A stretch of 40,374 nucleotides of DNA, taken from a virus. The stretch lies in IMG/VR virus record IMGVR_UViG_3300049795_000021, positions 1 to 40,374 of that record. One strand, written 5' to 3'. The position numbers and the translations under genes were made by a program. Below, piece by piece: positions 3,119 to 40,374 of this stretch; the first letter of the stretch is position 1, and each line of letters starts with the position of its first letter. A model generated the notes under the pieces. The model was given only the letters and a program-made list of their open reading frames with translations. It had not been told where the DNA came from and made no database searches.

Positions 3119-3197
3119 GCTACTTCCCTCGACGCACGAGATCCGGTGAGTGCGTCGGAGGAGAGGTCCGAACCGGACGGACGTTGGGAGGGATCGT

Positions 3198-5675
3198 ATG
3201 AGCATCGCGATCCCTCCCAAGCTCGCCGCGAAGGCCGGCCCCATCGGTCCCGGTAGCGGGCCGCTCCTGACTGAGTTCCCGCTGTCCGCCTACGCCAAGC
3301 CCAGCGCCCAGAAGAAGATGCAGAAGGCGTGGGCGCTGTCGTTCGAGGTGCCGTGGATCGCTGCAGCGGAGGATGCGATCACCGAACGGTTCGCGGGGGT
3401 CGAGTGGCACCTCGAAGACGAGAACGACGACGCCATCGACGACGCCTATCCGAACCAGGATGCGCAACTGGCGCGGACGCTAATCGAGAAGCCCGCGGCC
3501 AACCTGCCGGTGGGCGCGGCGTTCTACCGCTCCGACCTGTGGGCGCTCACGGCCCGGGCGATGGGCATCTGCGGCTCGTCGTTCATCTTCCTCGACCAGC
3601 CGGAACGGGTCGCCCGGACGCCGGCCGCGATGCTTCCGATCGCACCGTGGCGGATGAGCCCGAATGAGGACTCGCAGGGCAACCTCCTGACCTGGCAGAT
3701 CGACAAGACGCAGACGAGCCCCGGCATCGAAGTCTCGCTAGAGCAGATCCTCCATTACAAGCTCCGTCCCAACTTCGCCGGCCACTTCGGGGTCGGGCTC
3801 GTCGAAAGCGCGCTGCGCAAGGCCCAGATCACGACGGGCCTCGACGACCACATCGGGCTCGTGCTGTCCGGTGGCGGACGCTTGTCGGGCATCCTCTCGC
3901 CGAAGACCGGCATCGTTGGCGGAGATGAGATCCTCCAGATGGAGCGCGACTGGCGGACGATTGTCGAGCAGAGCGATGCCGCCAAGCGGTTGCAGCTCGT
4001 GCGGGCGCCGATCCAGTTCGACCGGACCACGCTCACGCCCGACGAGCTGAAGATCCGCGATCTCATGGTCGGCTCGCGGGACGACCTGCTGGCGCTGTGG
4101 GGCGTTCCGCTGTCGATCATTGGCGGCTCGACTCCCGCAGGGCTGAACTCAGGTGACACCCGCAAGTACGACGAGGCGGCGATCTGGCAGGGGCCGATCC
4201 ACCACCGACTCAACGTTTTCCGCGAGATCACGCAGTACCAGCTTCTCGACCGCTGGCGCGACCTCGGTGTCACGATCGAGCTGGAGATCGACGAACCGGA
4301 GTTTGACGACGACTCGCCGCGCTACGACCTCCTCGGCAAGTCCGTCAACGTTGCCCTGACGGACGATGAGCGTCGAGCACTGATCGGCAAGGAACCCCTG
4401 CCGAACGGCCTCGGGCTGATGGTCCGGCTGCCGGCAACGATCGTCGAGTCGTTCGCCGTGCCGTCGGTCGACGAAACCCCGTCGATCACCACGACGGTCC
4501 TCGGTCGGGCGGCGCAGCAGCAGCTCACGTCGGGCGATTCGGCGATGCTCGCGGCCGGCGAGACGAAAGCTGCCCTCCATCCCCGCGTCCAGCCGTTGCA
4601 CCAGGCGCTCATCCGCATCCGCAACCACATGGCATCGAAGGTCACCCCGCGGCTGCAGTCGTCCGTGGCGCAAGTGCTCACCGACCAGCGCCACGACATC
4701 GCCGCCCGACTCCGGGAGCACGCGGATCACGTCACGAAGAACCCCCGCGACACGAGCACATGGTTCGACAAAGGCTGGGACGCCAAGCTCCACAAGGCGT
4801 TGGTGCCGCACCTCACGGTCATGGCCGAGGCGGTCGTGGCGCAGGTTCACGACGTTCTGCCGGCCAAGCCGCACAAGGCCGGTCCTGTAGGGGCGGTCGA
4901 GCGGACCCTCAATCGTGGCGCGGCTCGGGTGACCGGGATCAACGAGACGACACGGGCGAAGATCCAGGAGGCCATCATCCGCGGGCTGGAGGACGGGTTG
5001 TCAGTTCTCGACGTGGCGGACCTGATCGAGGAATCGGGGACGGTCGGCGGTCTGGAGATGGGCGCGCTGTTCGACGAGTACCGCGCCGAGATGATCGCCC
5101 GGACCGAGCTGATGGACGCCTACAACGGCGCGGCCATCGGCAGCTACTCCGACGCCGGGATCACGCAGGTCGAGGCGATCGACGGCGACGGGGATGAGGA
5201 GTGCGCCGCGCGCGATGGGCAGACGTTCGGCATCGACGAGGCGGACGCCATCGAAGATCACCCGAACGGAACCTTGGATTGGGTGCCCGTGATCGGGGAG
5301 GAGGTCGCTATCGAAGGCAAGGCGGCCGTATCTGCACCCGTTCCCGTCACCACGCCCCAGAACTTCAACTTCAACTTCCCGGAGGGCATGGTCCGCGTCG
5401 AGCACCACGCCGGCGATGTCCACGTGGCCGCAGCGGAACCACAGATCATCCCGCCGGCGCAGATCGATGTCCACGTCCCCGACCAGCCGGCGCCGATCGT
5501 GAACACCGTGGTCAACGTTCCCGAAACGCCTGCGCCCATCGTCAACGTGGCCGGCGACACGCACATCGTCAACGTCCCGGAACCGTCCGTGACGGTGGTC
5601 GACGTCAAGCCAACCCGCAAGGTCATCGACCGCGATCGGACGGGCACGATCACCGGCATTCACGAGGAGAACTGA
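3198..5675 (+). CDS. Portal protein fused to a MuF / SPP1 gp7-like minor head protein domain
   Basis: ATG 3198 is preceded by GGGAGGG. 825 aa. Located downstream of terL. The C-terminal third carries MuF-like motifs (EMIARTELMDAYNGAAIG, DEECAARDGQTF, HPNGTLDW). A Pro/Val-rich repeat tail follows (VPDQPAPIVN, VPETPAPIVN, VPEPSVTVV). Confidence 0.75.
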   Translation: MSIAIPPKLAAKAGPIGPGSGPLLTEFPLSAYAKPSAQKKMQKAWALSFEVPWIAAAEDAITERFAGVEWHLEDENDDAIDDAYPNQDAQLARTLIEKPAANLPVGAAFYRSDLWALTARAMGICGSSFIFLDQPERVARTPAAMLPIAPWRMSPNEDSQGNLLTWQIDKTQTSPGIEVSLEQILHYKLRPNFAGHFGVGLVESALRKAQITTGLDDHIGLVLSGGGRLSGILSPKTGIVGGDEILQMERDWRTIVEQSDAAKRLQLVRAPIQFDRTTLTPDELKIRDLMVGSRDDLLALWGVPLSIIGGSTPAGLNSGDTRKYDEAAIWQGPIHHRLNVFREITQYQLLDRWRDLGVTIELEIDEPEFDDDSPRYDLLGKSVNVALTDDERRALIGKEPLPNGLGLMVRLPATIVESFAVPSVDETPSITTTVLGRAAQQQLTSGDSAMLAAGETKAALHPRVQPLHQALIRIRNHMASKVTPRLQSSVAQVLTDQRHDIAARLREHADHVTKNPRDTSTWFDKGWDAKLHKALVPHLTVMAEAVVAQVHDVLPAKPHKAGPVGAVERTLNRGAARVTGINETTRAKIQEAIIRGLEDGLSVLDVADLIEESGTVGGLEMGALFDEYRAEMIARTELMDAYNGAAIGSYSDAGITQVEAIDGDGDEECAARDGQTFGIDEADAIEDHPNGTLDWVPVIGEEVAIEGKAAVSAPVPVTTPQNFNFNFPEGMVRVEHHAGDVHVAAAEPQIIPPAQIDVHVPDQPAPIVNTVVNVPETPAPIVNVAGDTHIVNVPEPSVTVVDVKPTRKVIDRDRTGTITGIHEEN

Positions 5676-6625
5676 TGGACGATCTGCTCATGGCTCCGCG
5701 TGGCGATGTCGAGGTTCGGACGACGTCGCTCGTACCCGATGGCGCCCGCCCCGGTCTCCGTGAGCTGTGCGACGACCCGCGGGCGTTCACTCGTCCGATC
5801 CTGATTCGCGGGATCTGGCGCGATGCCGCCTTCGGAATGCAGCGGCGGGTCTGGCGTGAGCGTGTCCAGACGCACAACCTCCAGCTGAACGTCGGGCGCG
5901 ACCAGCAGAAGCGCATCGCGATGTTCGGCGACTTCGGAACCGCCCTCAATACCCTGGCGGCAGTGGGCACGGCGTCGGCCCCGACGGCCACGACATGGAC
6001 GGGCGCCGCGTCGTCGTTCCCGACCGCGACATCCGCCGCAGGCAATGCCGGCCTGCAGGGCAAGCTCGCTTTCATCGCCAATGCGATCTCCGCAGCGGCG
6101 TTCACGAACCCGGTCGTCGGGGTCATCCTGTCGAACACGGCCACTGTCCTGACGGTCGACCAGTGGTACGCCGTCCCGGTCACCGGCGCGGCAGGCACGA
6201 CGCCGGCCACAAACAGCGCATGCCTGATCCTGCCCGGCGGTGGGCCGATGTGGTTCTGCGCCCTGTCCACGAGCACCGCCGCAGCTGTGGCGAGCGACGT
6301 CACCCGCACGGCCGACGGACTGTGGGCCGATGGCACCGGTGGTGGCACGACGACTGAGCAGACGGCCAACGGCCTCGCCCGCGCGTACGTCGGTCATGGC
6401 AGCGCGACGCCGCCGACGATCTCCGGCGCGAACAACTACACCTACGGCCACACGTGGACGTACACCGGCGCGTCGACGGTCACGATCGGCAAGGTCGTCC
6501 TGTTCAACTCGCTCGCCTTCGCCGGCACCATCCCGATGCTCGAGACGCTCCTCAACGCGAATGCCTCGGTCGCAGCCAACGGCGACACGATCGTCCTGTC
6601 GTCCTGGTCGGTCACGGTGAACTGA
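5675..6625 (+). CDS. Hypothetical Ala/Thr/Gly-rich protein. First gene of the portal-protease insertion.
   Basis: The ATG overlaps the portal stop (TGATG). 316 aa. No recognisable motif. The longer ORF starting at 5201 overlaps the portal gene and is rejected. Confidence 0.6.
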   Translation: MDDLLMAPRGDVEVRTTSLVPDGARPGLRELCDDPRAFTRPILIRGIWRDAAFGMQRRVWRERVQTHNLQLNVGRDQQKRIAMFGDFGTALNTLAAVGTASAPTATTWTGAASSFPTATSAAGNAGLQGKLAFIANAISAAAFTNPVVGVILSNTATVLTVDQWYAVPVTGAAGTTPATNSACLILPGGGPMWFCALSTSTAAAVASDVTRTADGLWADGTGGGTTTEQTANGLARAYVGHGSATPPTISGANNYTYGHTWTYTGASTVTIGKVVLFNSLAFAGTIPMLETLLNANASVAANGDTIVLSSWSVTVN

Positions 6626-6627
6626 CG

Positions 6628-7089
6628 ATGGCTGCTGTCTTCACCGTCAACTCGGGCAAGGTCGCCGCTGCGTCGGCGGCGCTGAAGGTGGCCGTCCAGC
6701 TTGCCTCCACCGCCAACAAGACCTGCAAGATCATCGCGGTGGATTTCACCTTCGACGGGACGGATGCGACGAAGACGCCGATCCTCTGCGAGATGGTTCG
6801 CGAAACGGGCGTAAGTGCAACCGGCGGCACGGCCCCGACCCCGGTTCTGGCCGGCGGCGATGCGTCCGTCACCAGCGCGATGACCGCTCGGATCAACGAC
6901 ACCGCAGATGGCTCGGGGCCAACGGTGATCTGCGGCTGGCTTGTCTCGCCCACGTCGGGCTTCTCCTACCAGTGGCCGCTCGGGCGCGAGATCACCCTCA
7001 AGATCAGCGACTTCGTGGCGGCGCGGGTGACGACGGTGGCGGGGTCGGGTACGCCGAACTACGACGTCACCGTCTGGTACGAGGAGTGA
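6628..7089 (+). CDS. Hypothetical beta-rich protein
   Basis: ATG lies 2 nt after the upstream stop. 153 aa. High GC3. No recognised motif. Confidence 0.6.
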   Translation: MAAVFTVNSGKVAAASAALKVAVQLASTANKTCKIIAVDFTFDGTDATKTPILCEMVRETGVSATGGTAPTPVLAGGDASVTSAMTARINDTADGSGPTVICGWLVSPTSGFSYQWPLGREITLKISDFVAARVTTVAGSGTPNYDVTVWYEE

Positions 7090-8468
7090 GGCGTGCTGCT
7101 GTTCTCGCAGTCGTTCTCGCTTGGCTCCTGGTCGCGCCTGTCGATGCCAATCCGCCGCCCTGTCACGGCCAGATTTGTCCGCCGCCGGGGCCGGTAGCGA
7201 TGGGGCGCTTGAAAACGGCTGGTGCCGAGAGTCTCGACGTCAACGGGCTCGGGATCGAGGGGTTCGCGGCGAGCGCAGCCGGCGCGACTATCTCCACGCT
7301 CGTTCAGCGAACGGGATTGGCGTCATTCAAGGTGACCAATAACAGTAATGGAAACAACGGCGTCTGGAGTGGCCTGAGCACGGACGCCAATGTACTTGCC
7401 AGGTCCTATTTCTTTCGGATGTACTTCAGGATCGAAGTAGCTCCCTCCAGTGTCGAGACGATCTTCTCCACCGAGGATTTGCAGAACGCGGGCTTCAACC
7501 TCCAGCTCGGAACGGACCAAACCATCCAGTTGCGCGGCACCACGACTACGATCGGGAGTCCAAGCGCCGCGCTCGCTCTCAATACGTGGTACCGGGTCGA
7601 GGTATCCTGGAAGATCGGCTCTGGCTCGCTGGATGACAGCGTCGAATTTCGTCTCGATGGCGCGACGATCGCCTCCTCCACCAATGGGACGTGGTTCACG
7701 GTAGCCGCTGGACTTGTCGCGTTCGGAGCAATAAAGACGACGTCGACGGGCAGTATCTATTACTTCGACGACGTCGCTCTCAACGATGACCAAGGAGCCA
7801 GTCAGAACTCATGGCCCGGCGCCGGCAGCGTCGCCCTTCTTCTGCCGATCAGCGACAGCGCCGTGGGTGCAGGCTGGACGCTCGGCACTGGCACGGCCAT
7901 TAGCGCCAACGGTTTCGGCTCTGTCGATAACACACCACCAACGGGCGTTGCCGACCTCGCTGCGGGCTCCGATCCCAAACAGATCCGCAATGCCAGCGCG
8001 AACGCCAACACGAACTACGACGCGAACCTGACGACATATTTCAACGCGGGCATCGGGCCGAACAGTGTCGTCAATGTCCTCGTGCCCATCGTCGCAACGG
8101 CAGCGCCGGTGACGACGTCCTCCAAACAGGGCACCGTCGGCATCGTGAGCAACCCAACCATCGCCAATATCGCTTTGGGAGCAGGTGGCACCGCGGGCGC
8201 GTTCTGGTCCGGCGCGGCGGGAGCGGGGTATGCGACAGGTTGGAAGGTCTCGTTCGGGACCACAACGTACGCCCCGGCCGTCACCGTCACCACGTCTCCG
8301 GTCATGCGGATCACCCAGGTGACATCTTCCACCCGCATCGCGGTCGTCTGCTTCATGGGCATGTACGTCGACTACACGCCCGGCGGCAACCTGCCCGGAA
8401 CGGGCTTCGGCAAGACGAGCCAGGTGCGCGGTATCCGGGCCACGATCGCCCGATCGGACTTCTGGTAG
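7086..8468 (+). CDS. LamG / concanavalin-A-like lectin-fold protein with a signal-peptide-like N-terminus
   Basis: GTG 7086 overlaps the upstream stop (GTGA). The N-terminus is (M)RRAAVLAVVLAWLLVAPVDA followed by NPPPCHGQICPPPGP. The LamG-like core includes FFRMYFRIEV, NTWYRVEVSW, VEFRLDG and IYYFDDVALND. ATG 7200 is an alternative start. GC3 is visibly lower than in neighbouring genes. Confidence 0.65.
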   Translation: MRRAAVLAVVLAWLLVAPVDANPPPCHGQICPPPGPVAMGRLKTAGAESLDVNGLGIEGFAASAAGATISTLVQRTGLASFKVTNNSNGNNGVWSGLSTDANVLARSYFFRMYFRIEVAPSSVETIFSTEDLQNAGFNLQLGTDQTIQLRGTTTTIGSPSAALALNTWYRVEVSWKIGSGSLDDSVEFRLDGATIASSTNGTWFTVAAGLVAFGAIKTTSTGSIYYFDDVALNDDQGASQNSWPGAGSVALLLPISDSAVGAGWTLGTGTAISANGFGSVDNTPPTGVADLAAGSDPKQIRNASANANTNYDANLTTYFNAGIGPNSVVNVLVPIVATAAPVTTSSKQGTVGIVSNPTIANIALGAGGTAGAFWSGAAGAGYATGWKVSFGTTTYAPAVTVTTSPVMRITQVTSSTRIAVVCFMGMYVDYTPGGNLPGTGFGKTSQVRGIRATIARSDFW

Positions 8469-9575
8469 ATGGCACGCGCCGGACGCGCACAACCGATCCA
8501 CGTCAAGCCGCCCAAGCCACCGAAGGGCGGCGGGGCCAGCTTCACCGCGGTCGATAGCCTATCGGCTGAGTCGGACCTGGCGACCAAGACGGCTGGTGCG
8601 CCATCACGTACCGGAGCCGACAGTCTGGCGGCCGTCTCCGAGGTTGTCACCCGCGCAGCAACGGCGCGCAGTCGCACGGGTACGGATTCGCTCACCGCGC
8701 TGACCGATGCCGCCACTCGCACCGGCTCCGCCGCATCACGCACCGGAACGGATGCGCTCGCGGCCCTGACGGATACGGCGACTCGATCGGCGGTGGCACG
8801 ATCCCGAACGGGACCCGACTCGCTCGCGGCTCTCTCCGATGCCGCCACGCGAGCGGGGCAGACGTCCTCCCGGACGACCGCAGATAGCCTATCGGCCGAG
8901 ACCGATGCGGCGACGCGGGCCGGAGCGAGCGCCAGCCGAACCGGTTCCGATGCATTGAGCGCAGCAAGCGATGCCGCGACACGGGCCGCCGCGAGCTCGA
9001 CGAGGACGGGCACGGATGCGCTTGGCGCTCTCACGGATGCCGCTTCCCGCTCCGCTTCGGCCGCCAGTCGGACCAGCAGCGATGCTCTGACCGCCCTGAC
9101 AGATGCGGCGACCCGAGGCACATCGAACGCCCGGACCGGCTCAGACACTCTCGTAGCGTCGGCCGACATCGCGACGCGGGCCACGGCGACCAACACACGG
9201 AGCGCCTCGGACAGCCTCGCCGCTCTCGTCGATGTCGCGATGGGGGATGTCAGCGACCTCCGCACCGCCGCCGATGTCCTCGTATCGCTGGCAGACGTTG
9301 CCAGCCGATCTGCCGCTGCGACATCGCGGACGGCTGCTGATGCGCTGGACGCCTCAAGCGACATCGCAACATCGTTCGCCTCGGCGTCGCGAACCGCCAG
9401 CGATGTGCTCATTGCGTCCACGGATATCGCCCAGGCTGTCGGCATCGCGCAGGTCGTCGCGTCGGTCGGCGGAGGTGGACGCAACCGACGCCGGCACTTC
9501 ATCCCGGTCATTCCGATTATCCCCATTCAGATCGAGGACGAGGACCTGATCCTCCTCCTCTTGGAGGCTGCGTGA
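8469..9575 (+). CDS. Ser/Thr/Ala-rich protein built from about 14 tandem 22-aa repeats, with a hydrophobic-acidic C-terminus
   Basis: The ATG immediately follows the upstream TAG, and the stop overlaps the next start. The repeat unit is like SRTGTDSLTALTDAATRTGSAA. The C-terminus is RNRRRHFIPVIPIIPIQIEDEDLILLLLEAA. Confidence 0.7.
   Translation: MARAGRAQPIHVKPPKPPKGGGASFTAVDSLSAESDLATKTAGAPSRTGADSLAAVSEVVTRAATARSRTGTDSLTALTDAATRTGSAASRTGTDALAALTDTATRSAVARSRTGPDSLAALSDAATRAGQTSSRTTADSLSAETDAATRAGASASRTGSDALSAASDAATRAAASSTRTGTDALGALTDAASRSASAASRTSSDALTALTDAATRGTSNARTGSDTLVASADIATRATATNTRSASDSLAALVDVAMGDVSDLRTAADVLVSLADVASRSAAATSRTAADALDASSDIATSFASASRTASDVLIASTDIAQAVGIAQVVASVGGGGRNRRRHFIPVIPIIPIQIEDEDLILLLLEAA
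8538..9452 (+). repeat. About 14 diverged tandem repeats of 66 nt (some 63 nt), in-frame and coding
   Basis: Amino acids 24-328 of the 8469..9575 product parse into units that all keep the G-x-D-x-L ... D-x-A-[TS]-R register. Confidence 0.8.
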
Positions 9576-10651
9576 TGGCAGAAGGAACCATCGGCGGGAC
9601 ACCGATCAGCGAGCTTCCCGCGTCGTCGTTCGCGTACTGCGAAGCAGGATCCGAGGCCGTTTCGACGCGCTGCCACTTCCCGATCCGTGACAAATCGGGC
9701 AAGGCCGACGCGGCGCACGTCCGGAATGCGCTTGCACGGCTGTCCGGGTCGCCCTTCGAGGCCAAGGCTCGCCCGAAGGTCGAGGCGGCGGCGAAGGAAA
9801 TCGGCATCGGGCAACCCGGCGCGCAGAAGGCCGAGCCGATGACGACGAGCCAGCTCGACCGCTGGTTGTCCGGCAAGGTCCCGCGACGCATCCTCATGCT
9901 GCCGTTCGGCGGACCGCTGTCGGACGGCAAGGCTGGAGTGGACATCGACTACGAATACTTCGACGAGACAACGGACATCTACGGTCCGTTCCCGACCCTG
10001 CGCGCATCGCGTGAGCGCGTCGTCGACTGGCACCACGATGATGACGACGTGCCGTCACAGGTCGCCCGCAATGGCGATCCCAAACTGCTCTCAATGAAGG
10101 GCGCAATCCTCGGTCACCTCAATTTTGACGAGGACCCCGAGGCCGACGGCTATTGGGCCGACTGGTGGGCAAACGCCGGCGAGAAACGTCGTCGTCTGAT
10201 CGCCCTGCTCGACCGCAAAGGCGTGCCGATGTATGGCTCGACCCAGTCGGTCGCCAAGGCCCGCCTCCTGTGGCCGCCGGAGGCCGACGGACGGATCCCC
10301 GTCTGGCCGGTCATCCGCCACACGATCTCCACCAGTCCACAGAACACCTACGCCGTCGTGCCCGCCCTGAAGGCGACGCTTGCGGCCACCAACCTTGACG
10401 AGATCCCGGCCGAGGCGCTCAAGGCGCTGCTGGTCGGACTCGACGCGGATACGACGGAGCTTCTTCTCAGCTCGCCAGAGGCGGCGGTACGCGCTTCCGT
10501 CCTGGCCGGTGCAGAAGCGGTGAAGGCGGGTCGCGTTCTATCGAAGAAGAACATCGACGATCTGCAGGCGGCGATCGGGCTCCTATCGGACCTCCTGTCC
10601 AGGGGTGTCCTGCTGCCGGCTGCGGACACAGGAGACGAATTGACACCATGA
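9572..10651 (+). CDS. Prohead (capsid maturation) protease / scaffold-like protein (putative)
   Basis: 359 aa, directly upstream of and coupled to the major capsid gene. The N-terminal AAHVRNALARL motif is common in phage head-assembly proteins. The central region LMLPFGGPLSDGKAGVDIDYEYF ... VDWHHD ... YGSTQSV resembles actinophage maturation proteases. Confidence 0.5.
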   Translation: MMAEGTIGGTPISELPASSFAYCEAGSEAVSTRCHFPIRDKSGKADAAHVRNALARLSGSPFEAKARPKVEAAAKEIGIGQPGAQKAEPMTTSQLDRWLSGKVPRRILMLPFGGPLSDGKAGVDIDYEYFDETTDIYGPFPTLRASRERVVDWHHDDDDVPSQVARNGDPKLLSMKGAILGHLNFDEDPEADGYWADWWANAGEKRRRLIALLDRKGVPMYGSTQSVAKARLLWPPEADGRIPVWPVIRHTISTSPQNTYAVVPALKATLAATNLDEIPAEALKALLVGLDADTTELLLSSPEAAVRASVLAGAEAVKAGRVLSKKNIDDLQAAIGLLSDLLSRGVLLPAADTGDELTP

Positions 10652-12117
10652 GCGACGAAAAGGAGATCGGCGAGCAGATCGCCGAACTGACCGGCGAGCT
10701 TCGGAAGATCTCCGAACGCCGGACCGAGGCCCTCAAGGCTTCGACGGCTGACGGCGGGCGGGCTGCCGCAGCCGATGACGGAGCGAAGGACGTCAGCGCC
10801 CAACTGGTGGACCTGACGCGACAGGTTGCCGCCCTCCGCGGCGAGGACGACAAGAAGGCGTCGGACGCGGCGCGCAAGGCCGAGATCGAGGACGCCGTCA
10901 AGGCTGTCCTCAAGAACACCCGCAGCGCATCGCTGGCGGGCGCCATCGGCACCGGCTCGACGGGCGAGATCGACGACAGTCGCCTGATCCCGCAGGCCGC
11001 CACCCCGGCGCACCCGGCCCTCAAGGCACTGTTCCGCGATTACGTCGGCGGCGAGATCGTCAGCGGCTTCGTGGACAAGCTGTGGGGCACGCACGCGTCC
11101 GACTTCGCGATGGTCGGCCGCGGCAAGGCCAAGCTCGACGAGCTCGGCATGTTCTGGTCGGACCTTCCGCCCGAGAGCAAGGCCACCCTCGGCAACACCG
11201 GCGCGGCGGGTGGATACGTCCTGCCGAACAATCTTGTGGACACGGTCGTCAAGCCGTCCGTTCAGGAGGCTGTCTATCAGACGATCATCACCGTTCGCAA
11301 CGGCGTCAACGTCCGCGGCGTCGATCAGCCGTATCGCACCGGCGCGCCGACCCGGATGACGTTCCAGGCATGGGGCGTCGCGAAGGAGAACCTCGACGAG
11401 GCCTACGGGAGCTACTCGGCGGCCCTCGGCACGATGGCCCGCATCTACGATGTCGGCAAGCAATATCTCCGCTTCTCGCAGGGTGCGGCCGAGCAGGACG
11501 TCATGGACGAACTCGGCAAGGCCGCCATCCTCGGGGAGAACTTCTACATCCTCGCGGGCCTCGGTACGGGCACCGGTCCGTCCGGCGATCCGACGACGGG
11601 CGTCTACACCGCCCTCGCGGCGGCCGTGGCGGGCTACACCACCACGTTCACCGGATCGAGCTCCACGGTCGCCGGCTCCGCCGCGGCCGGTCTTGCCACG
11701 GCCTTCGGGGCGATGGCGACCCGTTCCCGGCGGCCCACGGCCGTCGTGACCGATGCCGTGACCTACTGGACGCTGTTCAGTCAGGGCTCGGACAACGCGG
11801 GCTTCTGGATGTCGGACCTGCTGGGCGCCGGGTTCCAGATCGGACCGGACAACTCCCTCCGCTGGAGGGGCGTGCCGATCCTGTACGACGCCAACTACAA
11901 CACCAACACCGGGACCACGAAGGGCGCGATCGCCGGCGACTGGCCGGCCCTCAAGCTCTATCGTGGCGCCGAGTTCCGGATCGACACCTCCGACCAGGCC
12001 GGCAGCCGCTGGGACAACAACCTCGTTGGGTTTAGGGGTGAGCAAGAGATCGGAATCAACGCCTCAACGGCCGTGTCGGTCGGGGCATTCCAGCGGATCA
12101 CCGGGCTGATCCCCTGA
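10648..12117 (+). CDS. Major capsid protein, HK97-fold type, with an N-terminal coiled-coil (delta/scaffold-like) domain
   Basis: 489 aa. Charged helical N-terminus (EIGEQIAELTGELRKISERRTEALKA). The C-terminal region is typical of HK97-like capsids (FRIDTSDQAGSRWDNNLVGFRGEQEIG). Position fits the head module. Confidence 0.8.
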   Translation: MSDEKEIGEQIAELTGELRKISERRTEALKASTADGGRAAAADDGAKDVSAQLVDLTRQVAALRGEDDKKASDAARKAEIEDAVKAVLKNTRSASLAGAIGTGSTGEIDDSRLIPQAATPAHPALKALFRDYVGGEIVSGFVDKLWGTHASDFAMVGRGKAKLDELGMFWSDLPPESKATLGNTGAAGGYVLPNNLVDTVVKPSVQEAVYQTIITVRNGVNVRGVDQPYRTGAPTRMTFQAWGVAKENLDEAYGSYSAALGTMARIYDVGKQYLRFSQGAAEQDVMDELGKAAILGENFYILAGLGTGTGPSGDPTTGVYTALAAAVAGYTTTFTGSSSTVAGSAAAGLATAFGAMATRSRRPTAVVTDAVTYWTLFSQGSDNAGFWMSDLLGAGFQIGPDNSLRWRGVPILYDANYNTNTGTTKGAIAGDWPALKLYRGAEFRIDTSDQAGSRWDNNLVGFRGEQEIGINASTAVSVGAFQRITGLIP

Positions 12118-12118
12118 T

Positions 12119-12742
12119 ATGAGCGTCTCCGCCGCTTTCCTGGTCAAGGACCCGCCGCTGGACCGGCTGGCGCTCCTCGTGGAGTACCTCCGGCCAATCG
12201 TGACGGAATTCGTCATCGTGGTCGATGACCGGACGGCGGCGGAGACGCTCGATCTGCTGTCCACCTGGCGGGGCGTGACCTGCGTCCCGTTCCGCTGGGT
12301 GGACGATTTCTCCGAGGCGCGGAACGCCGCGCTTCCCCATTGCTCGGGCGACTGGATCCTGCATCTCGACCCCGACGAGCTGCCCACGGCGGCGATGCTC
12401 GCGTTCATCGCGATGGTCGATGCCCAGCCACAGGAGGACGTCGACTGGCAGGGCTCGCGGTACATGGCCCCGCGGGGCTACCTGTTCTTCACGCAGAGCT
12501 ATTACGACGGCACACAGGCCTCCGAATGGGAGGAGCACTGGCACTGCCGGCTCTTCCGGAAGGGCTCGGTCTGGTACAAGCCGGTCCACGAGCAGGTCAT
12601 GCTCGAAGGGATGCCCGAGAGCCGGACTCGCGGCACGCCGCTGCTCCCGAAGGCACCCCGTTCGGCGTTCCTCATCCACTCGCGAATGAACGACGCGGCC
12701 AAGGATGAGCAGTACGCCGCGCTCAGCCTGGTGCCGGCGTGA
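12119..12742 (+). CDS. Glycosyltransferase family 2-like (GT-A fold)
   Basis: 207 aa. The start is 2 nt after the capsid stop. Motifs VIVVDDRT, DDFSEARNAAL and GDWILHLDPDE (DxD-type). Confidence 0.7.
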   Translation: MSVSAAFLVKDPPLDRLALLVEYLRPIVTEFVIVVDDRTAAETLDLLSTWRGVTCVPFRWVDDFSEARNAALPHCSGDWILHLDPDELPTAAMLAFIAMVDAQPQEDVDWQGSRYMAPRGYLFFTQSYYDGTQASEWEEHWHCRLFRKGSVWYKPVHEQVMLEGMPESRTRGTPLLPKAPRSAFLIHSRMNDAAKDEQYAALSLVPA

Positions 12743-13437
12743 AGTACCTCATCTGGTCCTACGATTATGACCACGCCTCGGCTGGCCCAAAGGCCCTTCA
12801 CCGTCTCTGCCACGAGTTGAACATGGCCGGGCAGGAGGCGTACGTCGGGCCGTGGACAACGAATCCAGACTGGATCACGCCCGTTCATGATGCTCCGTTG
12901 TCGGGCGACTGGACGGCCGTCTACCCCGAGATCGTCAGGGGCAACCCGTGGAATGCGCCGCATGTAGCGCGTTGGGTCCTGAATACGCCCGGCCTGCTCG
13001 GCGGCGACCCGACGTACGACGCGTCCGAGATCGTGTTTGCGTGGCACTCCGAGTTCCTGTCGGGCGTCCCGCTGCTCGAACTTCCGACGATCGAGACGGA
13101 CATCTACACCGACCGCCACGAGTCACGGTCGGGTGAGGCGTTCTACATCGGCAAGGGGTACGGGGAGTGGCCCGGCGCAGAGGTCATCACCCTTGCGATG
13201 CGCCGTGACCGCCACGCGCTGGCCGACTTGCTCAACCGCGTCACTCTGCTCCACACGTTCGACGACACGACCGCAATGATCCTGATCGCCGCGTTGTGCG
13301 GCTGTTCGGTCCATGTCGTGTCGAGCGGGGTGACGATCGACCCAGCGGGCGCGCGCGATGACTACTTCCGCCGCGCCGCCCGATCCGGTGAGCAGCTCGC
13401 CGGCTTCATTCAGGCGACGGACCTGGTGCCGGCGTGA
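12739..13437 (+). CDS. Hypothetical protein within the glycosyltransferase cassette. Possibly an uncharacterised transferase.
   Basis: GTGA overlap start. 232 aa. No canonical motif. It has the same LVPA C-terminus and 16-nt junction sequence as the upstream gene. Confidence 0.55.
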   Translation: MKYLIWSYDYDHASAGPKALHRLCHELNMAGQEAYVGPWTTNPDWITPVHDAPLSGDWTAVYPEIVRGNPWNAPHVARWVLNTPGLLGGDPTYDASEIVFAWHSEFLSGVPLLELPTIETDIYTDRHESRSGEAFYIGKGYGEWPGAEVITLAMRRDRHALADLLNRVTLLHTFDDTTAMILIAALCGCSVHVVSSGVTIDPAGARDDYFRRAARSGEQLAGFIQATDLVPA

Positions 13438-14090
13438 TCGCCGCCATCATCCCGACTCGCTACCACCCGCCCGAGTTGGACGTGCTGCTTGATGTGCTGC
13501 GAGGCGACGGAGTGCAACCGATCGTCCTCGGATCGGGGTTGTTCGATCACCAGATCTACCGGATGTGGAACGCGGGCAGCGACGCAACTAGCGCACGGAC
13601 CGTCGCCATCCTCAACGATGACATCACGCTCCTGCCCGGCTCGCTTCCGCTCATGGAGCGCATCTTGTGGTCGAACCCTCCGCCATTCGGTTGGGTCGCA
13701 CCCGAATGGCCGCAATTGGCGGTCGTCTACCCCGACATGACGGCCGAGTGGAGCCTGCCGGCGGAGCCCATGGTTCAGCGCACGACGGGGACGTGGGGGG
13801 GCGGCGGGATGACCGGCTTCTGCTTCATGTTCCGGACCGACCTCCTGCTTCCGCGCTTCGACGAGGGCTACCACTGGTGGTACGGCGACGACGCCTTCGA
13901 GTTGGGCGTCAGGGATGCCGGCTACGGCGTCGGGCGGGTCGTCGGGGTTCCGGTGCGTCACGAGCCGAACGGAACGGCCTCCCGTCATTGGGATGAGCTA
14001 CAACCGCTGATCGAGCAGGATCGCGCGCGCTGGGACGCCTCGTGGAACGCTCGCCATGCCGCTATCGCGCACCGGGAGCGGGGCGAATGA
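13434..14090 (+). CDS. Glycosyltransferase family 2-like (GT-A fold)
   Basis: GTGA overlap start. 218 aa. N-terminal IAAIIPTRY, VAILNDDI (DxD-like), and GGGMTGFCFMFR plus WWYGDDAFE, typical of GT2. Confidence 0.6.
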   Translation: MIAAIIPTRYHPPELDVLLDVLRGDGVQPIVLGSGLFDHQIYRMWNAGSDATSARTVAILNDDITLLPGSLPLMERILWSNPPPFGWVAPEWPQLAVVYPDMTAEWSLPAEPMVQRTTGTWGGGGMTGFCFMFRTDLLLPRFDEGYHWWYGDDAFELGVRDAGYGVGRVVGVPVRHEPNGTASRHWDELQPLIEQDRARWDASWNARHAAIAHRERGE

Positions 14091-15301
14091 CGCGGCTGCT
14101 GTTCCTCGGCGACCTGGCACGCACCGGGTTCGGGACGGTGACGATGGATCTCGGGCAGGCGTTGCTCGACCTCGGCATCGACGTCCGCTTCTGCTCGCTG
14201 TCCGAGACGCCGGGGGAGTTGCCGGAGCCGTTCGCCTCGCGGACGGCCCTGCTCGGCTCGCCGGGCGGATGGCTGGACGAGACCAACCCCGAAACGGTCG
14301 GTCGCCTCGAAGGGATGTTCCTAGGTTCGCTGTTCGAAGACGGCTGGACACCCGACATCGGGCTCGTCACGGGCGACATCGGCTCGCTCAAGATCAGCCC
14401 GGTCCTGCAGTTCATCCCCGAGGGCTTCCCGGTCCTCCACTACGTGCCGATCGAGGGGATCGGGCTCCCGCCGTCATGGGCCGCTGTCTGGCGCAAGGTG
14501 CAGCCGGTCGCCATGAGCCAGTTCGGCGCGGATGAGATCGCTAAGGTGACCGGCCATCGTCCTCCGGTTGTCTATCACGGCGTCGATCCGCTGTTCCACC
14601 CGGCCTCGGTCGAGTCCCCGATCCGGATCGACGGCAAGCGTCTTCGGGCGCGCGAGGCGTGTCGCAGGTTCTTCGGCGGCGATCCCGACGACATCTGGCT
14701 TCTCCGGACGGACCGCCATATGCCGCGCAAGGCGTACGGCTCGCTCCTCCGCTCGATCGCGCCGGTCCTCAGAGGACACCCGAACGTCAAGCTGATCCTC
14801 CACTGCCGGACGATGGACGGCGGCGGGGACATGCGTGACGAAATCAGCAAGTACGGAGTCCTGTCCCGCCAGATCGTCATGACCGGCTTCATGGACCCGC
14901 CGTTGGGAGGGTTGCAGCGCGAGGCGCTGGCGGCGCTCTACAACGCGGCCGACATCTATGTCTCGGTGTCGGCCGAGGGCTTCGGGTTGACGATCGCCGA
15001 GGCGTTGGCCTGCGGCGTTCCAGCGGTGGGAATGGACTACTCGTCGGTGCCCGAGGTCATCGGACCGGCCGGCGTGCTGGTTCCCATCGCGGGGCTCATC
15101 GACAACATCTACTCGTACTTCTGGGCGCGCGTTGACGAACCGAAATTCGGGCAGGCTGTCGAGGGCCTGATCCGCGATGTCGCCAAGCGGCGACTGCTCG
15201 GCGCGCAGGGCCCTCGTCACGTCGCCGCACACTTCTCTTGGCCGAATGCCGCCCGGCAGTTCGTCTCCCTCATTGAGCTTCGAAACGAGGTGGCGGCATG
15301 A
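14087..15301 (+). CDS. Glycosyltransferase family 4 / GT1-like (GT-B fold)
   Basis: ATGA overlap start. 404 aa. C-terminal E-x7-E signature region SVSAEGFGLTIAEALACGVPAVGMDYSSVPEVI. Confidence 0.8.
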   Translation: MTRLLFLGDLARTGFGTVTMDLGQALLDLGIDVRFCSLSETPGELPEPFASRTALLGSPGGWLDETNPETVGRLEGMFLGSLFEDGWTPDIGLVTGDIGSLKISPVLQFIPEGFPVLHYVPIEGIGLPPSWAAVWRKVQPVAMSQFGADEIAKVTGHRPPVVYHGVDPLFHPASVESPIRIDGKRLRAREACRRFFGGDPDDIWLLRTDRHMPRKAYGSLLRSIAPVLRGHPNVKLILHCRTMDGGGDMRDEISKYGVLSRQIVMTGFMDPPLGGLQREALAALYNAADIYVSVSAEGFGLTIAEALACGVPAVGMDYSSVPEVIGPAGVLVPIAGLIDNIYSYFWARVDEPKFGQAVEGLIRDVAKRRLLGAQGPRHVAAHFSWPNAARQFVSLIELRNEVAA

Positions 15302-16179
15302 CCGCTCGCTGGCAGGCCGCCCACACCTACGCCGCTGGCACGATCATCCTGCCAACCGTCGACAACGGCCGCTGCTTCTATGCCTCGATCGGCGGGACGT
15401 CGGGCTCCAATGAACCGGCGTGGCCCGGCAGGTATCCCGGCGTCGCCGACGGGACGGCGATCATCTGGACGCCGTACACGATCATCCAACCATCGACCAT
15501 CCGCACGATCCAGGGTTGGGACGACTCCACGGGTAGGTACTCGGACGACGTGATCGGCAACTACCTGCTGGACTCGATCGCCGAGTTGGAGAAGACAACA
15601 CGGCGGTACTTCGTGAACAAGCCCGGCTTCACGTGGCAGATGACCTCGTACGGCCGCCCGATCCTCGCCCTGCCGGGACTCCGCACGGCCTCCGCGGTGA
15701 CGTATCAGGGCGCGGCGCAGGTGGCGGGCATTCCCGGACAGGGCTCGGGCTACATGCTCCTCCCAGATGCGCAGCAGACGGGCGTCTTCACCTCGATCTC
15801 CTTCCGGCCTCGCCGGATCCCCGATGGCGATGCGCCGTGGTGGCTGTCGCTGGGCGGCGCGACCACCAACTGGTTCGACACCGCGGCCGACAGCCCGTTC
15901 GACCCGCGGAACTACGGCGGCGGCTACGTCTTCACCTCGACCGAGCTCGACACGATCATCGTCGGCGACTGGGGCTACGCGCCGGGCTCGGAGCCGGGGC
16001 CGTTCGTCCACGCCCTCGAAATCCTCGCCTCGTTCGCCCAGCAGCGGCCGGTGAGCCTGCTCGCGGATTCGGTCATCACGCCACAGGGTGGTGTCCTGTC
16101 CTATAGCCAGATGCCCGCCGAGGTCGGTCAGTTCGTCCGCGATTGGAGTGCGGGTCAGCAGGCGGTCTCACTGGGATGA
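15298..16179 (+). CDS. Head-tail adaptor/connector (gp6-like) with an extra N-terminal GTSGxxEPxWP module
   Basis: 293 aa. YSDDVIGNYLLDSIAELEKTTRRYF resembles gp6-like connectors. The N-terminal ~60 aa (WQAAHTYAAG ... GGTSGSNEPAWP ... DGTAIIW) is paralogous to the N-terminus of the 16807..17442 product. Confidence 0.5.
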   Translation: MTARWQAAHTYAAGTIILPTVDNGRCFYASIGGTSGSNEPAWPGRYPGVADGTAIIWTPYTIIQPSTIRTIQGWDDSTGRYSDDVIGNYLLDSIAELEKTTRRYFVNKPGFTWQMTSYGRPILALPGLRTASAVTYQGAAQVAGIPGQGSGYMLLPDAQQTGVFTSISFRPRRIPDGDAPWWLSLGGATTNWFDTAADSPFDPRNYGGGYVFTSTELDTIIVGDWGYAPGSEPGPFVHALEILASFAQQRPVSLLADSVITPQGGVLSYSQMPAEVGQFVRDWSAGQQAVSLG

Positions 16180-16322: not shown

Positions 16323-16810
16323 GTGAGACGATCGTCGGTCTCTCGGCGCTCAACTGGCGCATGGCCGCTGTTCAGCAGCCCAAAGGCCTGATGAAACTCG
16401 CCGCCGAGCATGTCGTGGGTCAGTTGAGACGGAATATTCCGCGAAAGAGCAGCGGGACATCGCGCACGATTCATGTGGCGGAGGTCAGAGAGACATCGGC
16501 CCTGGTCGTAGGCAACAAGGTGGCGTTGTTCCTTGATATGGGCACCGGCCTATTTGGTCCCAAGCACCAGCGGATCACCCCGAGTGCAGCTAAGGCGCTC
16601 CGCTGGATGGGCGGTCCGGCCGGGTCGCTGCGGTTGTCAGGCAGGGCGCGCAAGGGCAAGGCCGGAACAGGGGCGCACTGGATCTACGCTCGCTCGATAA
16701 AGGGCATGAAGGCGCGCCCGTACATCAGTCGTTCGGTTCAGGAGGCGGCCAGGAAGGTCGGTGTGGAACTGTCCGCTGAGATCATCAAGGACTGGAACGG
16801 CGCCGGGTGA
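16319..16810 (+). CDS. HK97 gp10-like head-tail joining / tail completion protein
   Basis: 163 aa from ATG 16319. The C-terminal GMKARPYISRSV motif is typical of the gp10 family. Position is within the neck module. Confidence 0.6.
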   Translation: MSETIVGLSALNWRMAAVQQPKGLMKLAAEHVVGQLRRNIPRKSSGTSRTIHVAEVRETSALVVGNKVALFLDMGTGLFGPKHQRITPSAAKALRWMGGPAGSLRLSGRARKGKAGTGAHWIYARSIKGMKARPYISRSVQEAARKVGVELSAEIIKDWNGAG

Positions 16811-17442
16811 ACACCACGATCTGGAATCCGTACTGGCAGGCACTCCACGCCTACAGCCTGACCGCGGTCATCCGGCCCACGACGTTCGCGGGCTACACCT
16901 GGCGCGTCACGACGGCCGGGACCAGCGGGGCGACCGAGCCGACGTGGCCCAATCCGCTGCTGACGCCGACCATCGTCGACGGGACCGTGACGTGGAGCGC
17001 GGACACGGCCTTCCGGCAGCAGACGCAGGCGGCCATCCTGACCCTCGTGACCGCGTTCAAGGCGGCGAACCCCACGATCGTCCGCTCGGTCGCGAGCGTC
17101 AGGCCGGGGTCATTTGCCGGTACCGCGTCACTCCCTGTCTTCTACATCGGGGACATGAGCGAGAGTTACGCCTACGTCGGGCAGGTCTGGCAGCGGACGA
17201 TGGCGGGGCTCACCTGTTACCTCGTGGATCAGCTCGGCACCGTGGGCGACTCGAACGACCGGATGAACTTCGCCCACGACGTGTTGGCCGACCTGTTCAC
17301 CGTGAACTTCCACGCGATCTCCCCGCGCTCGATCCTCCAACTCTCAGCGATCAACGACTTCGAGTTCGAGGACCTCGGTCCCGCGTATCCCGCGCTGCAG
17401 TTCATCTTCGGCAGCACCAACATGCAGGAGGGGCGCACGTAG
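16807..17442 (+). CDS. Neck / tail terminator-like protein with an N-terminal GTSGxxEPxWP module
   Basis: GTGA overlap start. 211 aa. It lies just before the major tail gene. The N-terminus is WQALHAYSL ... TAGTSGATEPTWP ... DGTVTW. Confidence 0.45.
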   Translation: MNTTIWNPYWQALHAYSLTAVIRPTTFAGYTWRVTTAGTSGATEPTWPNPLLTPTIVDGTVTWSADTAFRQQTQAAILTLVTAFKAANPTIVRSVASVRPGSFAGTASLPVFYIGDMSESYAYVGQVWQRTMAGLTCYLVDQLGTVGDSNDRMNFAHDVLADLFTVNFHAISPRSILQLSAINDFEFEDLGPAYPALQFIFGSTNMQEGRT

Positions 17443-25970: not shown

Positions 25971-26350
25971 CGACCGACATCCTCCACTGCCGCTGCGGTG
26001 TCGAGGTCCGCGTGGTCCGGCTGAACGCCAAGTTGCTCGCGCTCGGTCACGTCACGAACCCGCGCCAGAACCACCATCCAGTCCGGCTCGCTCCGGCGTC
26101 CGCTGACCGACGACTGAAGGCCGCCCGGCCGCCGGTCGCGGGGACAAATCAGCGGACGCCGGAGGGGCCGGAACGGCGGGTGTCCCCTGTCGAGAGGGAC
26201 GCCAACGTGGCACCGCGCAGTGCTTGCCTCGACTCCGGCCCCTCACCTGACCGGCGCTCGCCTCGTGCGGGCTCGCCCCGAATGCGTGTGCCCACGCAAA
26301 CGGACCAGCGACCCAAGCCGGTCTCCCCTAGCCAGATGCCCCGTGTCTAA
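25967..26350 (+). CDS. Hypothetical protein. Only the first ~35 codons look coding and the true extent is uncertain.
   Basis: ATGA overlap start. The N-terminus MTTDILHCRCGVEVRVVRLNAKLLALGH has high GC3. From about 26070 onward GC3 falls and the sequence becomes P/R/S-rich and hairpin-rich. Confidence 0.3.
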   Translation: MTTDILHCRCGVEVRVVRLNAKLLALGHVTNPRQNHHPVRLAPASADRRLKAARPPVAGTNQRTPEGPERRVSPVERDANVAPRSACLDSGPSPDRRSPRAGSPRMRVPTQTDQRPKPVSPSQMPRV

Positions 26351-26810
26351 CGGCGGCGGGCGCTGGCCAACCCCTTGGAGGGAGCGGTTCTGGGATCGCG
26401 TTGAGCGGCCGACCCTATTCGATTGTTGGATGTGGACACGCGGCCTTGATCAGGACGGCTACGGCCAAGTTAGTCGTTGGCCACAGAGCCACGCGAAGGC
26501 CCATCGCGTTGCGTGGGAACTGACGTTCGGCGAGATCCCGACTGATCTCGAGGTCTGCCACACCTGCGATAACCCGCCGTGCTGCAACCCGGCGCACCTC
26601 TGGCTCGGGACGCACGCAGACAACATGCGCGACTCCGTTGTCAAGGGTCGTCACAAGAACCGTCGCCGAACTAGGCCGGTCACCTTCGTCCAGCCCCCAT
26701 CGAAGGAGAGCCCCACCCGCCCCCTTCGGGTGAGTGCGGTTCGCGCTCGGGCCGACAGTGGCTCTCCTTCGATGGGGGCTGGACGCCTGACACCGCCGGG
26801 GCGGTCGTAG
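26343..26810 (+). CDS. HNH homing-type endonuclease (HNH_3-like)
   Basis: Motifs CWMWTRGLDQDGYG, AHRVAWELTFGEIP and CHTCDNPPCCNPAHLWLGTHADNMRD. The start is uncertain (GTG 26343 chosen, GTG 26220 possible). GC3 is lower than the genome norm. The 3' 120 nt are occupied by a 23-bp inverted repeat. Confidence 0.8.
   Translation: MSNGGGRWPTPWRERFWDRVERPTLFDCWMWTRGLDQDGYGQVSRWPQSHAKAHRVAWELTFGEIPTDLEVCHTCDNPPCCNPAHLWLGTHADNMRDSVVKGRHKNRRRTRPVTFVQPPSKESPTRPLRVSAVRARADSGSPSMGAGRLTPPGRS
26690..26782. repeat. Perfect 23-bp inverted repeat with a 47-nt loop (long stem-loop)
   Basis: CCAGCCCCCATCGAAGGAGAGCC (26690-26712) is the exact reverse complement of 26760-26782. An inner hairpin is CACCCG/CGGGTG at 26715-26732. 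Confidence 0.85.
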
Positions 26811-28141: not shown

Positions 28142-28437
28142 GCGGCCAGTACGTCGACCTTACCGAACGGCTGTCCGAGGCGCCCGACCTCCGCGATCTC
28201 TCGGACTTCCGGCGCAAGCAACTCCGTGAGTCCTCCTCCTGCGTCGGCTGCGGCTCCCATGAGCCTGCTCGCATCGAGGGGCGCACCTGCTCCGACTGCA
28301 CCGCCTATCCGACGTGCGGCCTCTGTGGTCGGTGGGTCGGTGACGGCTCGGGCTGGCTACCGGGCTACGTGAACGCGCTGGACGGACAGGGCGACGACAT
28401 CAAGGTCTGCACGTTCTGCTACGGGGAGGCGACATGA
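28138..28437 (+). CDS. Cys-rich zinc-finger-like protein
   Basis: ATGA overlap start. 99 aa with CVGC, CSDC, CGLC and CTFC pairs. Confidence 0.6.
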   Translation: MSGQYVDLTERLSEAPDLRDLSDFRRKQLRESSSCVGCGSHEPARIEGRTCSDCTAYPTCGLCGRWVGDGSGWLPGYVNALDGQGDDIKVCTFCYGEAT

Positions 28438-38732: not shown

Positions 38733-39035
38733 ATGCGCCGTTCCACCCGGAGCGTCCCGACCGGCCCCGGCTCAAGGGGCGGGCACTGGCATGACCCCGA
38801 GTGGCGACGCGAGTATCACCGTCGATGGCGAGCCAACCATCCCGATTACCGAGAGCGGGATGCCTTGCGGATGGCCAGAACTCGGGCACGACAGCGTGGC
38901 GAGGACCCCGACATGTTGACCCGGCTGACGCGGGGCCTCTTGCCGATCCTCGCCGCGCGCTGCGCCTGTTCCTGCGGGTGCGCCGCCGAGGTCGTCCTGT
39001 TGTGCGGCTTTTGCCGTGAGGAGCTCCACACATGA
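38733..39035 (+). CDS. Arg/Trp-rich small protein with a C-terminal Cys cluster
   Basis: 100 aa. HWHDPEWRREYHRRWRANHPDYRERDA, then CACSCGC ... CGFC. ATGA coupling to the endolysin gene. Confidence 0.5.
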   Translation: MRRSTRSVPTGPGSRGGHWHDPEWRREYHRRWRANHPDYRERDALRMARTRARQRGEDPDMLTRLTRGLLPILAARCACSCGCAAEVVLLCGFCREELHT

Positions 39036-40352: not shown

Positions 40353-40374
40353 AGGAAGGAAACTCCGATGGCCG
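40248..40374. repeat. Terminal direct repeat, right copy. Identical to 1-127.
   Basis: Same comparison as the left copy. The 127-nt length matches a common maximum assembler k-mer. Confidence 0.9.

Follow-up and report, generated by a model that had tools for sequence, protein, structure and literature searches.

A four-gene cassette lies between the major capsid and head-tail adaptor genes

We analysed a 40,374-nucleotide (nt) stretch of viral DNA (IMG/VR record IMGVR_UViG_3300049795_000021, positions 1 to 40,374; hereafter the window), in which four genes, g1 to g4, fill the interval between the genes for the major capsid protein and a head-tail adaptor. An initial annotation, drawn from the sequence without database searches, had described a glycosyltransferase cassette embedded in the virion structural operon and had proposed that it glycosylates a virion component in several steps. 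The locus is arranged as follows (lengths in amino acids, aa):

10648..12117, + strand, major capsid protein of HK97 type, 489 aa (Pfam Phage_capsid 3.5e-10; PHROG 10 1.7e-19)
12119..12742, + strand, g1, GT-A / GT2 glycosyltransferase of a GmaR/SunS-like clade, 207 aa (Pfam, PDB and profile matches)
12739..13437, + strand, g2, predicted compact GT-B-fold glycosyltransferase-like protein, 232 aa (AlphaFold model, Foldseek)
13434..14090, + strand, g3, GT-A-fold glycosyltransferase, 218 aa (Pfam matches of relatives, AlphaFold model, Foldseek)
14087..15301, + strand, g4, GT4 (GT-B) glycosyltransferase, 404 aa (Pfam, PHROG, EX7E motif)
15298..16179, + strand, head-tail adaptor, 293 aa, downstream border of the island (assigned through the orthologue in the related contig L003)

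The coordinates and junctions first reported for the four co-directional genes were borne out. The capsid TGA stop ends at 12117 and the g1 ATG begins at 12119, with 1 nt between them, and 4-nt overlaps join g1 to g2 (GTGA), g2 to g3 (GTGA), g3 to g4 (ATGA) and g4 to the adaptor gene (ATGA). For g4 the longest open reading frame (ORF) begins at 14042, but the Joint Genome Institute (JGI) gene call and homologues favour a start at 14087. A scan of 8-19.5 kb revealed no promoter-like sites, and terminator-like sites did not exceed those in shuffled sequence. Together with the 4-nt overlaps, these results support the assignment of g1-g4 to one late structural transcription unit, in agreement with the late co-expression with head proteins that had been proposed. 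The GC content at third codon positions of g1-g4 (0.84-0.90) equals that of the neighbouring capsid gene (0.89), so that the cassette looks native and not like a recent foreign insert.

Two of the junctions carry an identical 16-mer, CCTGGTGCCGGCGTGA, at g1/g2 (12727-12742) and g2/g3 (13422-13437), which occurs nowhere else in the window, and the g1 and g2 proteins both terminate in LVPA. It could be a conserved signal for stop-start coupling, or have been left behind when modules were shuffled.

The adaptor of the window itself gave no useful match in Pfam (to E 5) or in PDB, whether searched as a single sequence or as a profile. Its orthologue in L003 (36% identity) matches phrog_442, head-tail adaptor, at 3.2e-8 and stands upstream of an HK97-gp10-like gene; the placement of the cassette between capsid and adaptor therefore stands. 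The N-terminal domain of the adaptor, of about 60 aa (15298-15480), is shared with the protein encoded at 16807-17442 (16807-17010; 37% identity, E 6e-12) and follows the pattern W..A..Y....I.P...G......GTSG..EP.WP......DGT..W. This domain matches PHROG 20658 (head decoration), and the adaptor orthologues of four related phages lack it.

Glycosyltransferase folds are found or predicted in all four proteins

Motifs had led to three of the genes being read as glycosyltransferases, with g2 (12739-13437) left unplaced. The quoted motifs are present in the genes named, and profile searches and structure prediction upheld the three assignments; the fourth protein was predicted from its model to have a glycosyltransferase fold as well, which would bring the number to four. 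The cassette would have the order GT-A, GT-B, GT-A, GT-B, and its products are apparently soluble, as no clear membrane-spanning segment was detected in g1-g4.

The g1 protein matched PF00535 (GT2) at 2.5e-8 (34.5 bits against a gathering cut-off of 23.3). It carries the motif DDFSEARNAAL and, at residues 83-87, LDPDE (DxD), in which six orthologues show no change at D84, D86 or E87. In a phmmer search of PDB the best match was the glycosyltransferase domain of GmaR (5.5e-8, residues 3-167), followed by SunS. With a profile built from the six orthologues, GmaR was matched at 1.8e-13 over nearly the full length and SunS at 1.7e-7, followed by the related glycosyltransferase 7msk at 6.4e-5; GT2 enzymes for teichoic acid, chondroitin, heparosan and polysaccharides were found at 1e-4 or worse. 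Among NCBIfam models the SunS family alone was matched, weakly (18 bits against a cut-off of 350), and tblastn against GenBank phage records gave short weak matches only. By these sequence comparisons g1 stands nearer to glycosyltransferases for proteins and peptides than to the rest of GT2, and its proximity to GmaR and SunS lends support to a protein acceptor.

GmaR, the O-linked N-acetylglucosamine (GlcNAc) transferase of Listeria flagellin, and SunS-type enzymes act in the cytoplasm directly on protein or peptide. NCBIfam names SunS a peptide S-glycosyltransferase. Within the aligned g1 residues 3-167, GmaR and g1 share a W-x-D-D-F-S-x-A-R-N motif and a D-x-D-E motif. GmaR also has tetratricopeptide repeat (TPR) and anti-repressor domains and SunS an additional C-terminal part, whereas g1 has none of these: a test for an extra domain (the TPR of GmaR or the C-terminal part of SunS) was negative, and g1 is essentially the catalytic domain alone. 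In GmaR, the corresponding N-terminal domain of about 180 residues transfers GlcNAc onto flagellin (PMC9638930).

No match to g2 was found in Pfam, PHROG or NCBIfam, and its family profile found nothing among PDB sequences. The AlphaFold model, computed from an alignment of 50 homologues, reached a predicted local distance difference test score (pLDDT) of 95.8. When it was compared with PDB by Foldseek, 49 of the 50 matches listed were glycosyltransferases, mostly named GT-B enzymes. AmGGT was the best match (3.3e-5), followed by PimA, SenB, MshA, BshA and T4 beta-glucosyltransferase, with template modelling (TM) scores of 0.5-0.58. AmGGT is a processive glucosyltransferase whose homologues lengthen sugar chains on glycopeptides (PMC12159676). 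A fold search of BFVD returned weak GT-B-like viral matches only, none of them from mycobacteriophages. Typical GT-B enzymes exceed g2 in length by about 100 residues, and no catalytic motif was identified in g2. On the strength of the model, g2 would be a compact GT-B-like glycosyltransferase, matched at the level of fold only.

The g3 protein itself had no Pfam match, and PF00535 was matched by 21 of 48 members of its family. Its AlphaFold model (pLDDT 93.5) had 95 PDB matches at E<=1e-3, of which all 50 listed were glycosyltransferase or GT-A-type entries, headed by the WrtF fucosyltransferase, mimivirus R655 and AvpGT. It contains the motifs ILNDD and WWYGDDAFE, and D62-D63 are invariant in 48 sequences. 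The family profile of g3 matched only de novo designed TIM barrels among PDB sequences, which we judged to be spurious, caused by a repeated short motif. For g4, Pfam gave Glyco_trans_1_4 at 1.1e-14 (55.4 bits, cut-off 27) and Glycos_transf_1 at 4.4e-11 (43.1 bits, cut-off 26.4), and PHROG 2170 was matched at 4.9e-18. An EX7E motif, EGFGLTIAE, begins at residue 297, and among solved structures those of PimB-type and MshA-like enzymes are most closely related.

The cassette occupies a hypervariable island

Searched with the capsid alignment, IMG/VR gave 44 loci, with identities as low as 31%, which reduce to 39 once redundant ones are removed. Island genes were counted where the sequence continued for at least 6.5 kb beyond the capsid gene, as it did in 23 loci. 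A g4-like GT4 gene lies upstream of the adaptor in 23/23 loci, and the adaptor was found in 22/23. The remaining genes are patchier, g1 being present in 10/23, g3 in 6/23 and g2 in 2/23. The distance from capsid to adaptor ranges from 2.5 to 7.1 kb across loci. Seventy-two other ORFs in this interval include FkbM methyltransferases (10), GT1-like (6) and GT2 (4) proteins, and epimerase, GDP-mannose dehydratase or RmlD proteins (3), as well as FdtA, cytidylyltransferases and hexapeptide acyltransferases. Close relatives (L003, L007 and L012) keep the order capsid, g1, g2, g3, g4, adaptor, and L004/L005 have the same order with added genes, among them an FkbM methyltransferase gene. The window is best read as one allele of a hypervariable glycan island with a fixed position and a conserved GT4 end, shared widely among uncultured tailed phages of HK97 type.

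One locus of this lineage, L139 (3906-12018), lies at the end of a 156,688-bp ENA contig and has the order capsid, methyltransferase, epimerase, TOD1/MUCI70-like protein, GT4 and a gene in the adaptor position. It adjoins a gene with an AIRS_C domain and could reveal a host. A host search by scanning GTDB genomes for the capsid had a single outcome, a contig of 8.7 kb assigned to the bin of a Chloroflexi metagenome-assembled genome.

Homologues of g2 and g4 extend well beyond the window. Of 1.84 billion representatives searched, 3,045 matched the g2 family at E<=1e-3, and IMG/VR yielded 124 relatives of g2; for g4 there are, at E<=1e-30, at least 903 clusters, most of them on contigs of phage size. 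In many viral loci g2 and g3 homologues adjoin each other, and in more distant phages the pair stands just after the portal gene. The g2 domain is also fused to a GT-A domain (L028 3520-5255, L032 7182-9332, L038 2342-4276), to a g1-like GT2 (L080 7374-8846), or to a GT-A and a GT4 in an 816-aa protein (L015 7995-10445, with the same protein in L017). The domain boundaries of these fusions come from clean profiles, and the middle GT-A of the 816-aa protein is seen with an iterated profile only. Among 50,697 GenBank phage records, tblastn found no match to g2, to g3 or to the capsid protein, and megablast found none to the region. A cellular homologue of g2 in Aquabacter spiritensis (SMAI01000008.1; L006, 6680-10873) follows genes for a trehalose-phosphatase, a trehalose-6-phosphate synthase (Glyco_transf_20) and an unannotated 299-aa protein, a context that hints at a sugar-related role of the g2 family outside phages.

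The island resembles bacterial O-antigen and capsule loci, in which a fixed site with conserved flanks holds variable glycosyltransferases, methyltransferases, acyltransferases and nucleotide-sugar enzymes; it differs from them in being phage-borne and placed inside a virion structural operon. An alternative to virion glycosylation is that, in the course of infection, the island alters an envelope polymer of the host (O-antigen, teichoic acid, capsule or exopolysaccharide) and the virion carries no glycan; this could block superinfection or keep progeny from re-adsorbing to debris. Such a role has often been favoured in published readings of phage glycosyltransferases (PMC7029224). It would agree with the JGI names of some g2 homologues (O-antigen biosynthesis) and of g4 (cell-wall biosynthesis glycosyltransferase), with the presence of cellular g2 homologues, and with the g3 fold neighbours TarP and RmlT, both wall-teichoic-acid glycosyltransferases, and WrtF. 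Homologues of g2 often have genes for GDP-mannose dehydratase, epimerase, RmlD and DegT nearby, as is usual in O-antigen clusters. Upstream of g2 homologues in 48 loci, 87 ORFs included 12 for GDP-mannose dehydratase/epimerase, about nine for portal and five for capsid proteins.

We nevertheless regard modification of the host envelope as unlikely. The window yielded no flippase, polymerase, polyprenyl-phosphate transferase or membrane-anchored GtrB-like protein, and neither Wzx/Wzy/Wzz-type genes nor a gene for an initiating polyprenyl-phosphate transferase appeared there or among the Pfam families listed first for the island ORFs. The enzymes lack clear membrane-spanning segments, as noted above, and g1 is nearest to protein/peptide glycosyltransferases. 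Coupling to the capsid gene would place expression late, when a change of the host surface brings little gain, and the capsid-adaptor position, fixed in 23/23 relatives, is unlike that of typical morons. The marks of Gtr- or TarP-type lysogenic conversion, namely an integrase, a membrane-associated glycosyltransferase or flippase and a moron-like position, were not found. With no Pfam integrase and a closed genome with its genes on one strand, lysogenic conversion is improbable for this phage.

The genome is complete and has no detected partner genes for DNA modification

The ends of the window share an exact direct repeat of 127 bp (1-127 and 40248-40374), which indicates a circularly closed, complete phage genome of 40,247 bp, assembled as a contig from a JGI metagenome. 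All its credible genes lie on the + strand. Upstream of the capsid gene we find:

1147-2430, + strand, large terminase
3150-5675, + strand, portal fused to a Mu-F-like domain
5675-9575, + strand, four genes without an assigned function, which separate portal/Mu-F from the gene in the scaffold position
9572-10651, + strand, gene in the scaffold or protease position

The right arm encodes an HNH endonuclease (26220-26810, 4.2e-14), an ERF-family recombinase (28434-29384, 7.9e-10) and a GH25 lysozyme (39032-39802, 5.8e-14). There are no tRNA genes in the genome.

We then considered whether the enzymes might glycosylate the phage DNA, as in the sugar hypermodification of 5-hydroxymethyl pyrimidines that protects against host nucleases. 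Phage clusters of GT-A and GT-B enzymes do add mono- to trisaccharides to 5-hydroxymethylcytosine, some of them near structural genes (Pyle et al., bioRxiv 10.1101/2023.12.21.572611), and T4 beta-glucosyltransferase is among the weaker fold matches of g2 (E 1.3e-2). A Pfam scan of the closed genome, which took in every candidate gene of at least about 140 aa and did not include ORFs below about 130 aa, gave no match to an integrase, a ThyS-like protein, TET/5mYOX or a DNA methyltransferase. The phage therefore has no detected partner genes for DNA modification or for lysogenic conversion; a hydroxymethylase, TET/5mYOX or DNA cytosine methyltransferase that could make the acceptor base is not detectable by Pfam, and intact hypermodification pathways are usually clustered (bioRxiv 10.1101/2023.12.21.572611). 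In the 39 related loci the island neighbours serve sugar synthesis or encode FkbM methyltransferases, with none for base modification, and the resemblance of g1 to protein/peptide glycosyltransferases also speaks against a DNA acceptor. We consider this explanation highly improbable.

The capsid protein heads the list of candidate acceptors

Two virion components had been put forward as substrates: a Thr/Ser-rich loop of the capsid protein and the Ser/Thr-rich repeat protein at 8469-9575. In the capsid protein, a region of about 185 aa precedes the Pfam match at the N-terminus. The first half of the proposed loop (G-x-G-T-G...G-x-Y-T-A-L) turned out to be a conserved stretch of the capsid alignment and no special insertion. 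The remainder of the proposal fared better, since one segment near residues 321-345 provides the only 15-residue window with a mean Ser+Thr content of at least 0.3 (0.33-0.39) across 40 capsids of the lineage:

11608..11682, + strand, Ser/Thr-rich, indel-rich capsid segment, YTTTFTGSSSTVAGS..., residues ~321-345, candidate O-glycosylation patch

Because the island is welded to the capsid gene throughout the lineage and this is the only Ser/Thr-enriched segment, the capsid protein is most likely the acceptor among the candidates.

The genes at 5675-9575 encode products that may be head fibres or decoration proteins. In the protein at 5675-6625, Ser, Thr, Ala and Gly abound in the C-terminal half, and the protein at 6631-7089 gave no informative match. 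The protein at ~7100-8468 matches PHROG 14065 and looks, by eye, like a concanavalin/LamG-like domain. The protein at 8469-9575 is 27% Ser+Thr with degenerate repeats, and a tandem-repeat search of its gene found a two-copy 22-nt DNA repeat only, so that any longer repeat is visible at the protein level only. At the position equivalent to 5675-9575, a relative encodes a collagen-like protein of 803 aa.

As a variant of virion glycosylation, the acceptor could be one of these accessory proteins (5675-6625, ~7100-8468 or 8469-9575) or a tail or neck protein. The Ser+Thr content of the 8469-9575 product and of the C-terminal half of the 5675-6625 product would suit such a role, as would the collagen-like protein of the relative; mimivirus R655 and LH3, which glycosylates collagen, are both among the fold neighbours of g3. 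In the mycobacteriophage precedent, tail-tube proteins are glycosylated too. Membership of the virion is a candidate assignment only for these proteins, however, and few homologues of them were found in the loci collected with g2 (four for the repeat protein and two for the 6972-8468 protein, the window counted; capsid-lineage loci were not searched), whereas capsid gene and island are present together throughout the capsid lineage. We consider an accessory, tail or neck protein a distinctly unlikely acceptor.

Comparison with known glycosylation systems

In phages Che8, Corndog and Myrna, capsid and tail-tube proteins are glycosylated by enzymes that the phages themselves encode (Freeman et al. 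2023, Cell Host Microbe 31:1216, as summarized in PMC11600133, PMC12363180 and PMC11256854). In Corndog, a methyltransferase and three glycosyltransferases lie between portal and protease and are transcribed with the structural genes (PMC4351075). Corndog (gp35-gp38) and the window thus both have a four-gene sugar-modification cassette inside the head-morphogenesis operon, and the Corndog O-methyltransferase has a counterpart in the FkbM methyltransferases (10/72 ORFs) in islands of the window's relatives. The two cassettes differ in position, portal-protease in Corndog and capsid-adaptor in the window, and in content, since the window has four glycosyltransferases and no methyltransferase in place of one methyltransferase and three glycosyltransferases. 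Comparison of the window enzymes with Corndog gp35-38, the only mycobacteriophage proteins compared, gave nothing significant by phmmer or hmmsearch, and hhalign of g3 with gp37 gave a probability of 2.6%. The likeness to Che8, Corndog and Myrna would therefore be one of working principle and not of protein families.

Closer parallels in position were found in two cultured phages. In the same slot, Pontimonas phage phiPsal1 (MG835450) has the order capsid, GT1, methyltransferase, GT2, neck protein, and Microcystis phage Mae-JY09 (PP395641) has capsid, a small gene, GT4, a GT-A-like gene, an epimerase-like gene, another gene and adaptor. Their GT4 proteins are homologous to g4 (phiPsal1, phmmer 1e-16; Mae-JY09, 1.2e-83 by hmmsearch with an iterated g4 profile), and their GT-A proteins are weakly similar to g3 (4e-4 and 6e-6, respectively, in tiny databases). 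Neither phage has a homologue of the GmaR-like g1 or of g2, and their capsids are unrelated to that of the window at BLAST level. The paper that reports phiPsal1 does not take up this phage any further (PMC6106888). With these two loci and the head-module cassette of Corndog, the initial description of an unusual, poorly described arrangement is overstated.

Discussion

We think it probable, if only just, that g1-g4 glycosylate a virion protein of the phage, by analogy with the mycobacteriophage systems. Multi-step virion glycosylation, as first proposed, is the reading that the proximity of g1 to GmaR and SunS supports best, and its acceptor stays a candidate. On this reading, g1-g4 would be translated late from the capsid message by stop-start coupling. 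The enzymes would draw on nucleotide sugars of the host, because the genome encodes no sugar-activating enzymes. The g1 enzyme would set the first sugar directly on Ser or Thr of a virion protein, most likely the capsid protein, and g2, g3 and g4 would lengthen it to a short oligosaccharide, so that a glycan coats the particle surface. Swapping of enzymes in the middle of the island would make the structure of this glycan vary among related phages. We infer from the genes a protein as acceptor, which protein this is, the order of the enzymes, the sugars and the biological role of the glycan.

Several points weigh against virion glycosylation. The case for it is built on gene position, fold and analogy. 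The g1 protein lacks the TPR or peptide-binding domain found beside the catalytic domain in GmaR and SunS, and the window enzymes have no relation to Corndog gp35-38 detectable by phmmer, hmmsearch or hhalign. Members of the g2 family occur in cellular genomes (Aquabacter), some labelled by JGI as O-antigen biosynthesis proteins, and the wider g2 neighbours, with GDP-mannose dehydratase in 12/87 upstream ORFs, are like those of O-antigen clusters, which a polysaccharide product would fit equally. Among the 39 non-redundant loci no capsid relative without an island was found that could serve as a control for the Ser/Thr patch, every relative with enough downstream sequence having the island. 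Finally, L139 may be a prophage.

A broader proposal is that HK97-type phages of a very abundant and entirely uncultured lineage maintain, at the fixed site between capsid and adaptor, a hypervariable glycan locus like those for O-antigen, by which a capsid glycan started by the GmaR-like g1 and extended by g2 is diversified into many glycan serotypes. Virion glycosylation would then be widespread in environmental phages, a trait under diversifying selection and no curiosity of a few mycobacteriophages. We put this forward tentatively, as a possibility that we would sooner doubt than assert.

Glycosylation of phage virions was reportedly first demonstrated in 2023 in three mycobacteriophages, where it is said to shield the particles from antibodies. 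The concept is already established, and what the present locus adds is a lineage-wide island, a g2 family that lacks a model and a minimal g1. At 207 aa, g1 is a minimal candidate protein O-glycosyltransferase, and g2 represents a large GT-B-like family that has no Pfam, PHROG or NCBIfam model. Should one of the other explanations be right, the island would be an ordinary auxiliary sugar cluster. If virion glycosylation by g1-g4 is true, it would be common in environmental phages, carried out by unrelated enzymes and varying among close relatives as bacterial surface antigens do. It would then matter for how phages and hosts recognize each other, for the stability of particles and for designing therapeutic phages.

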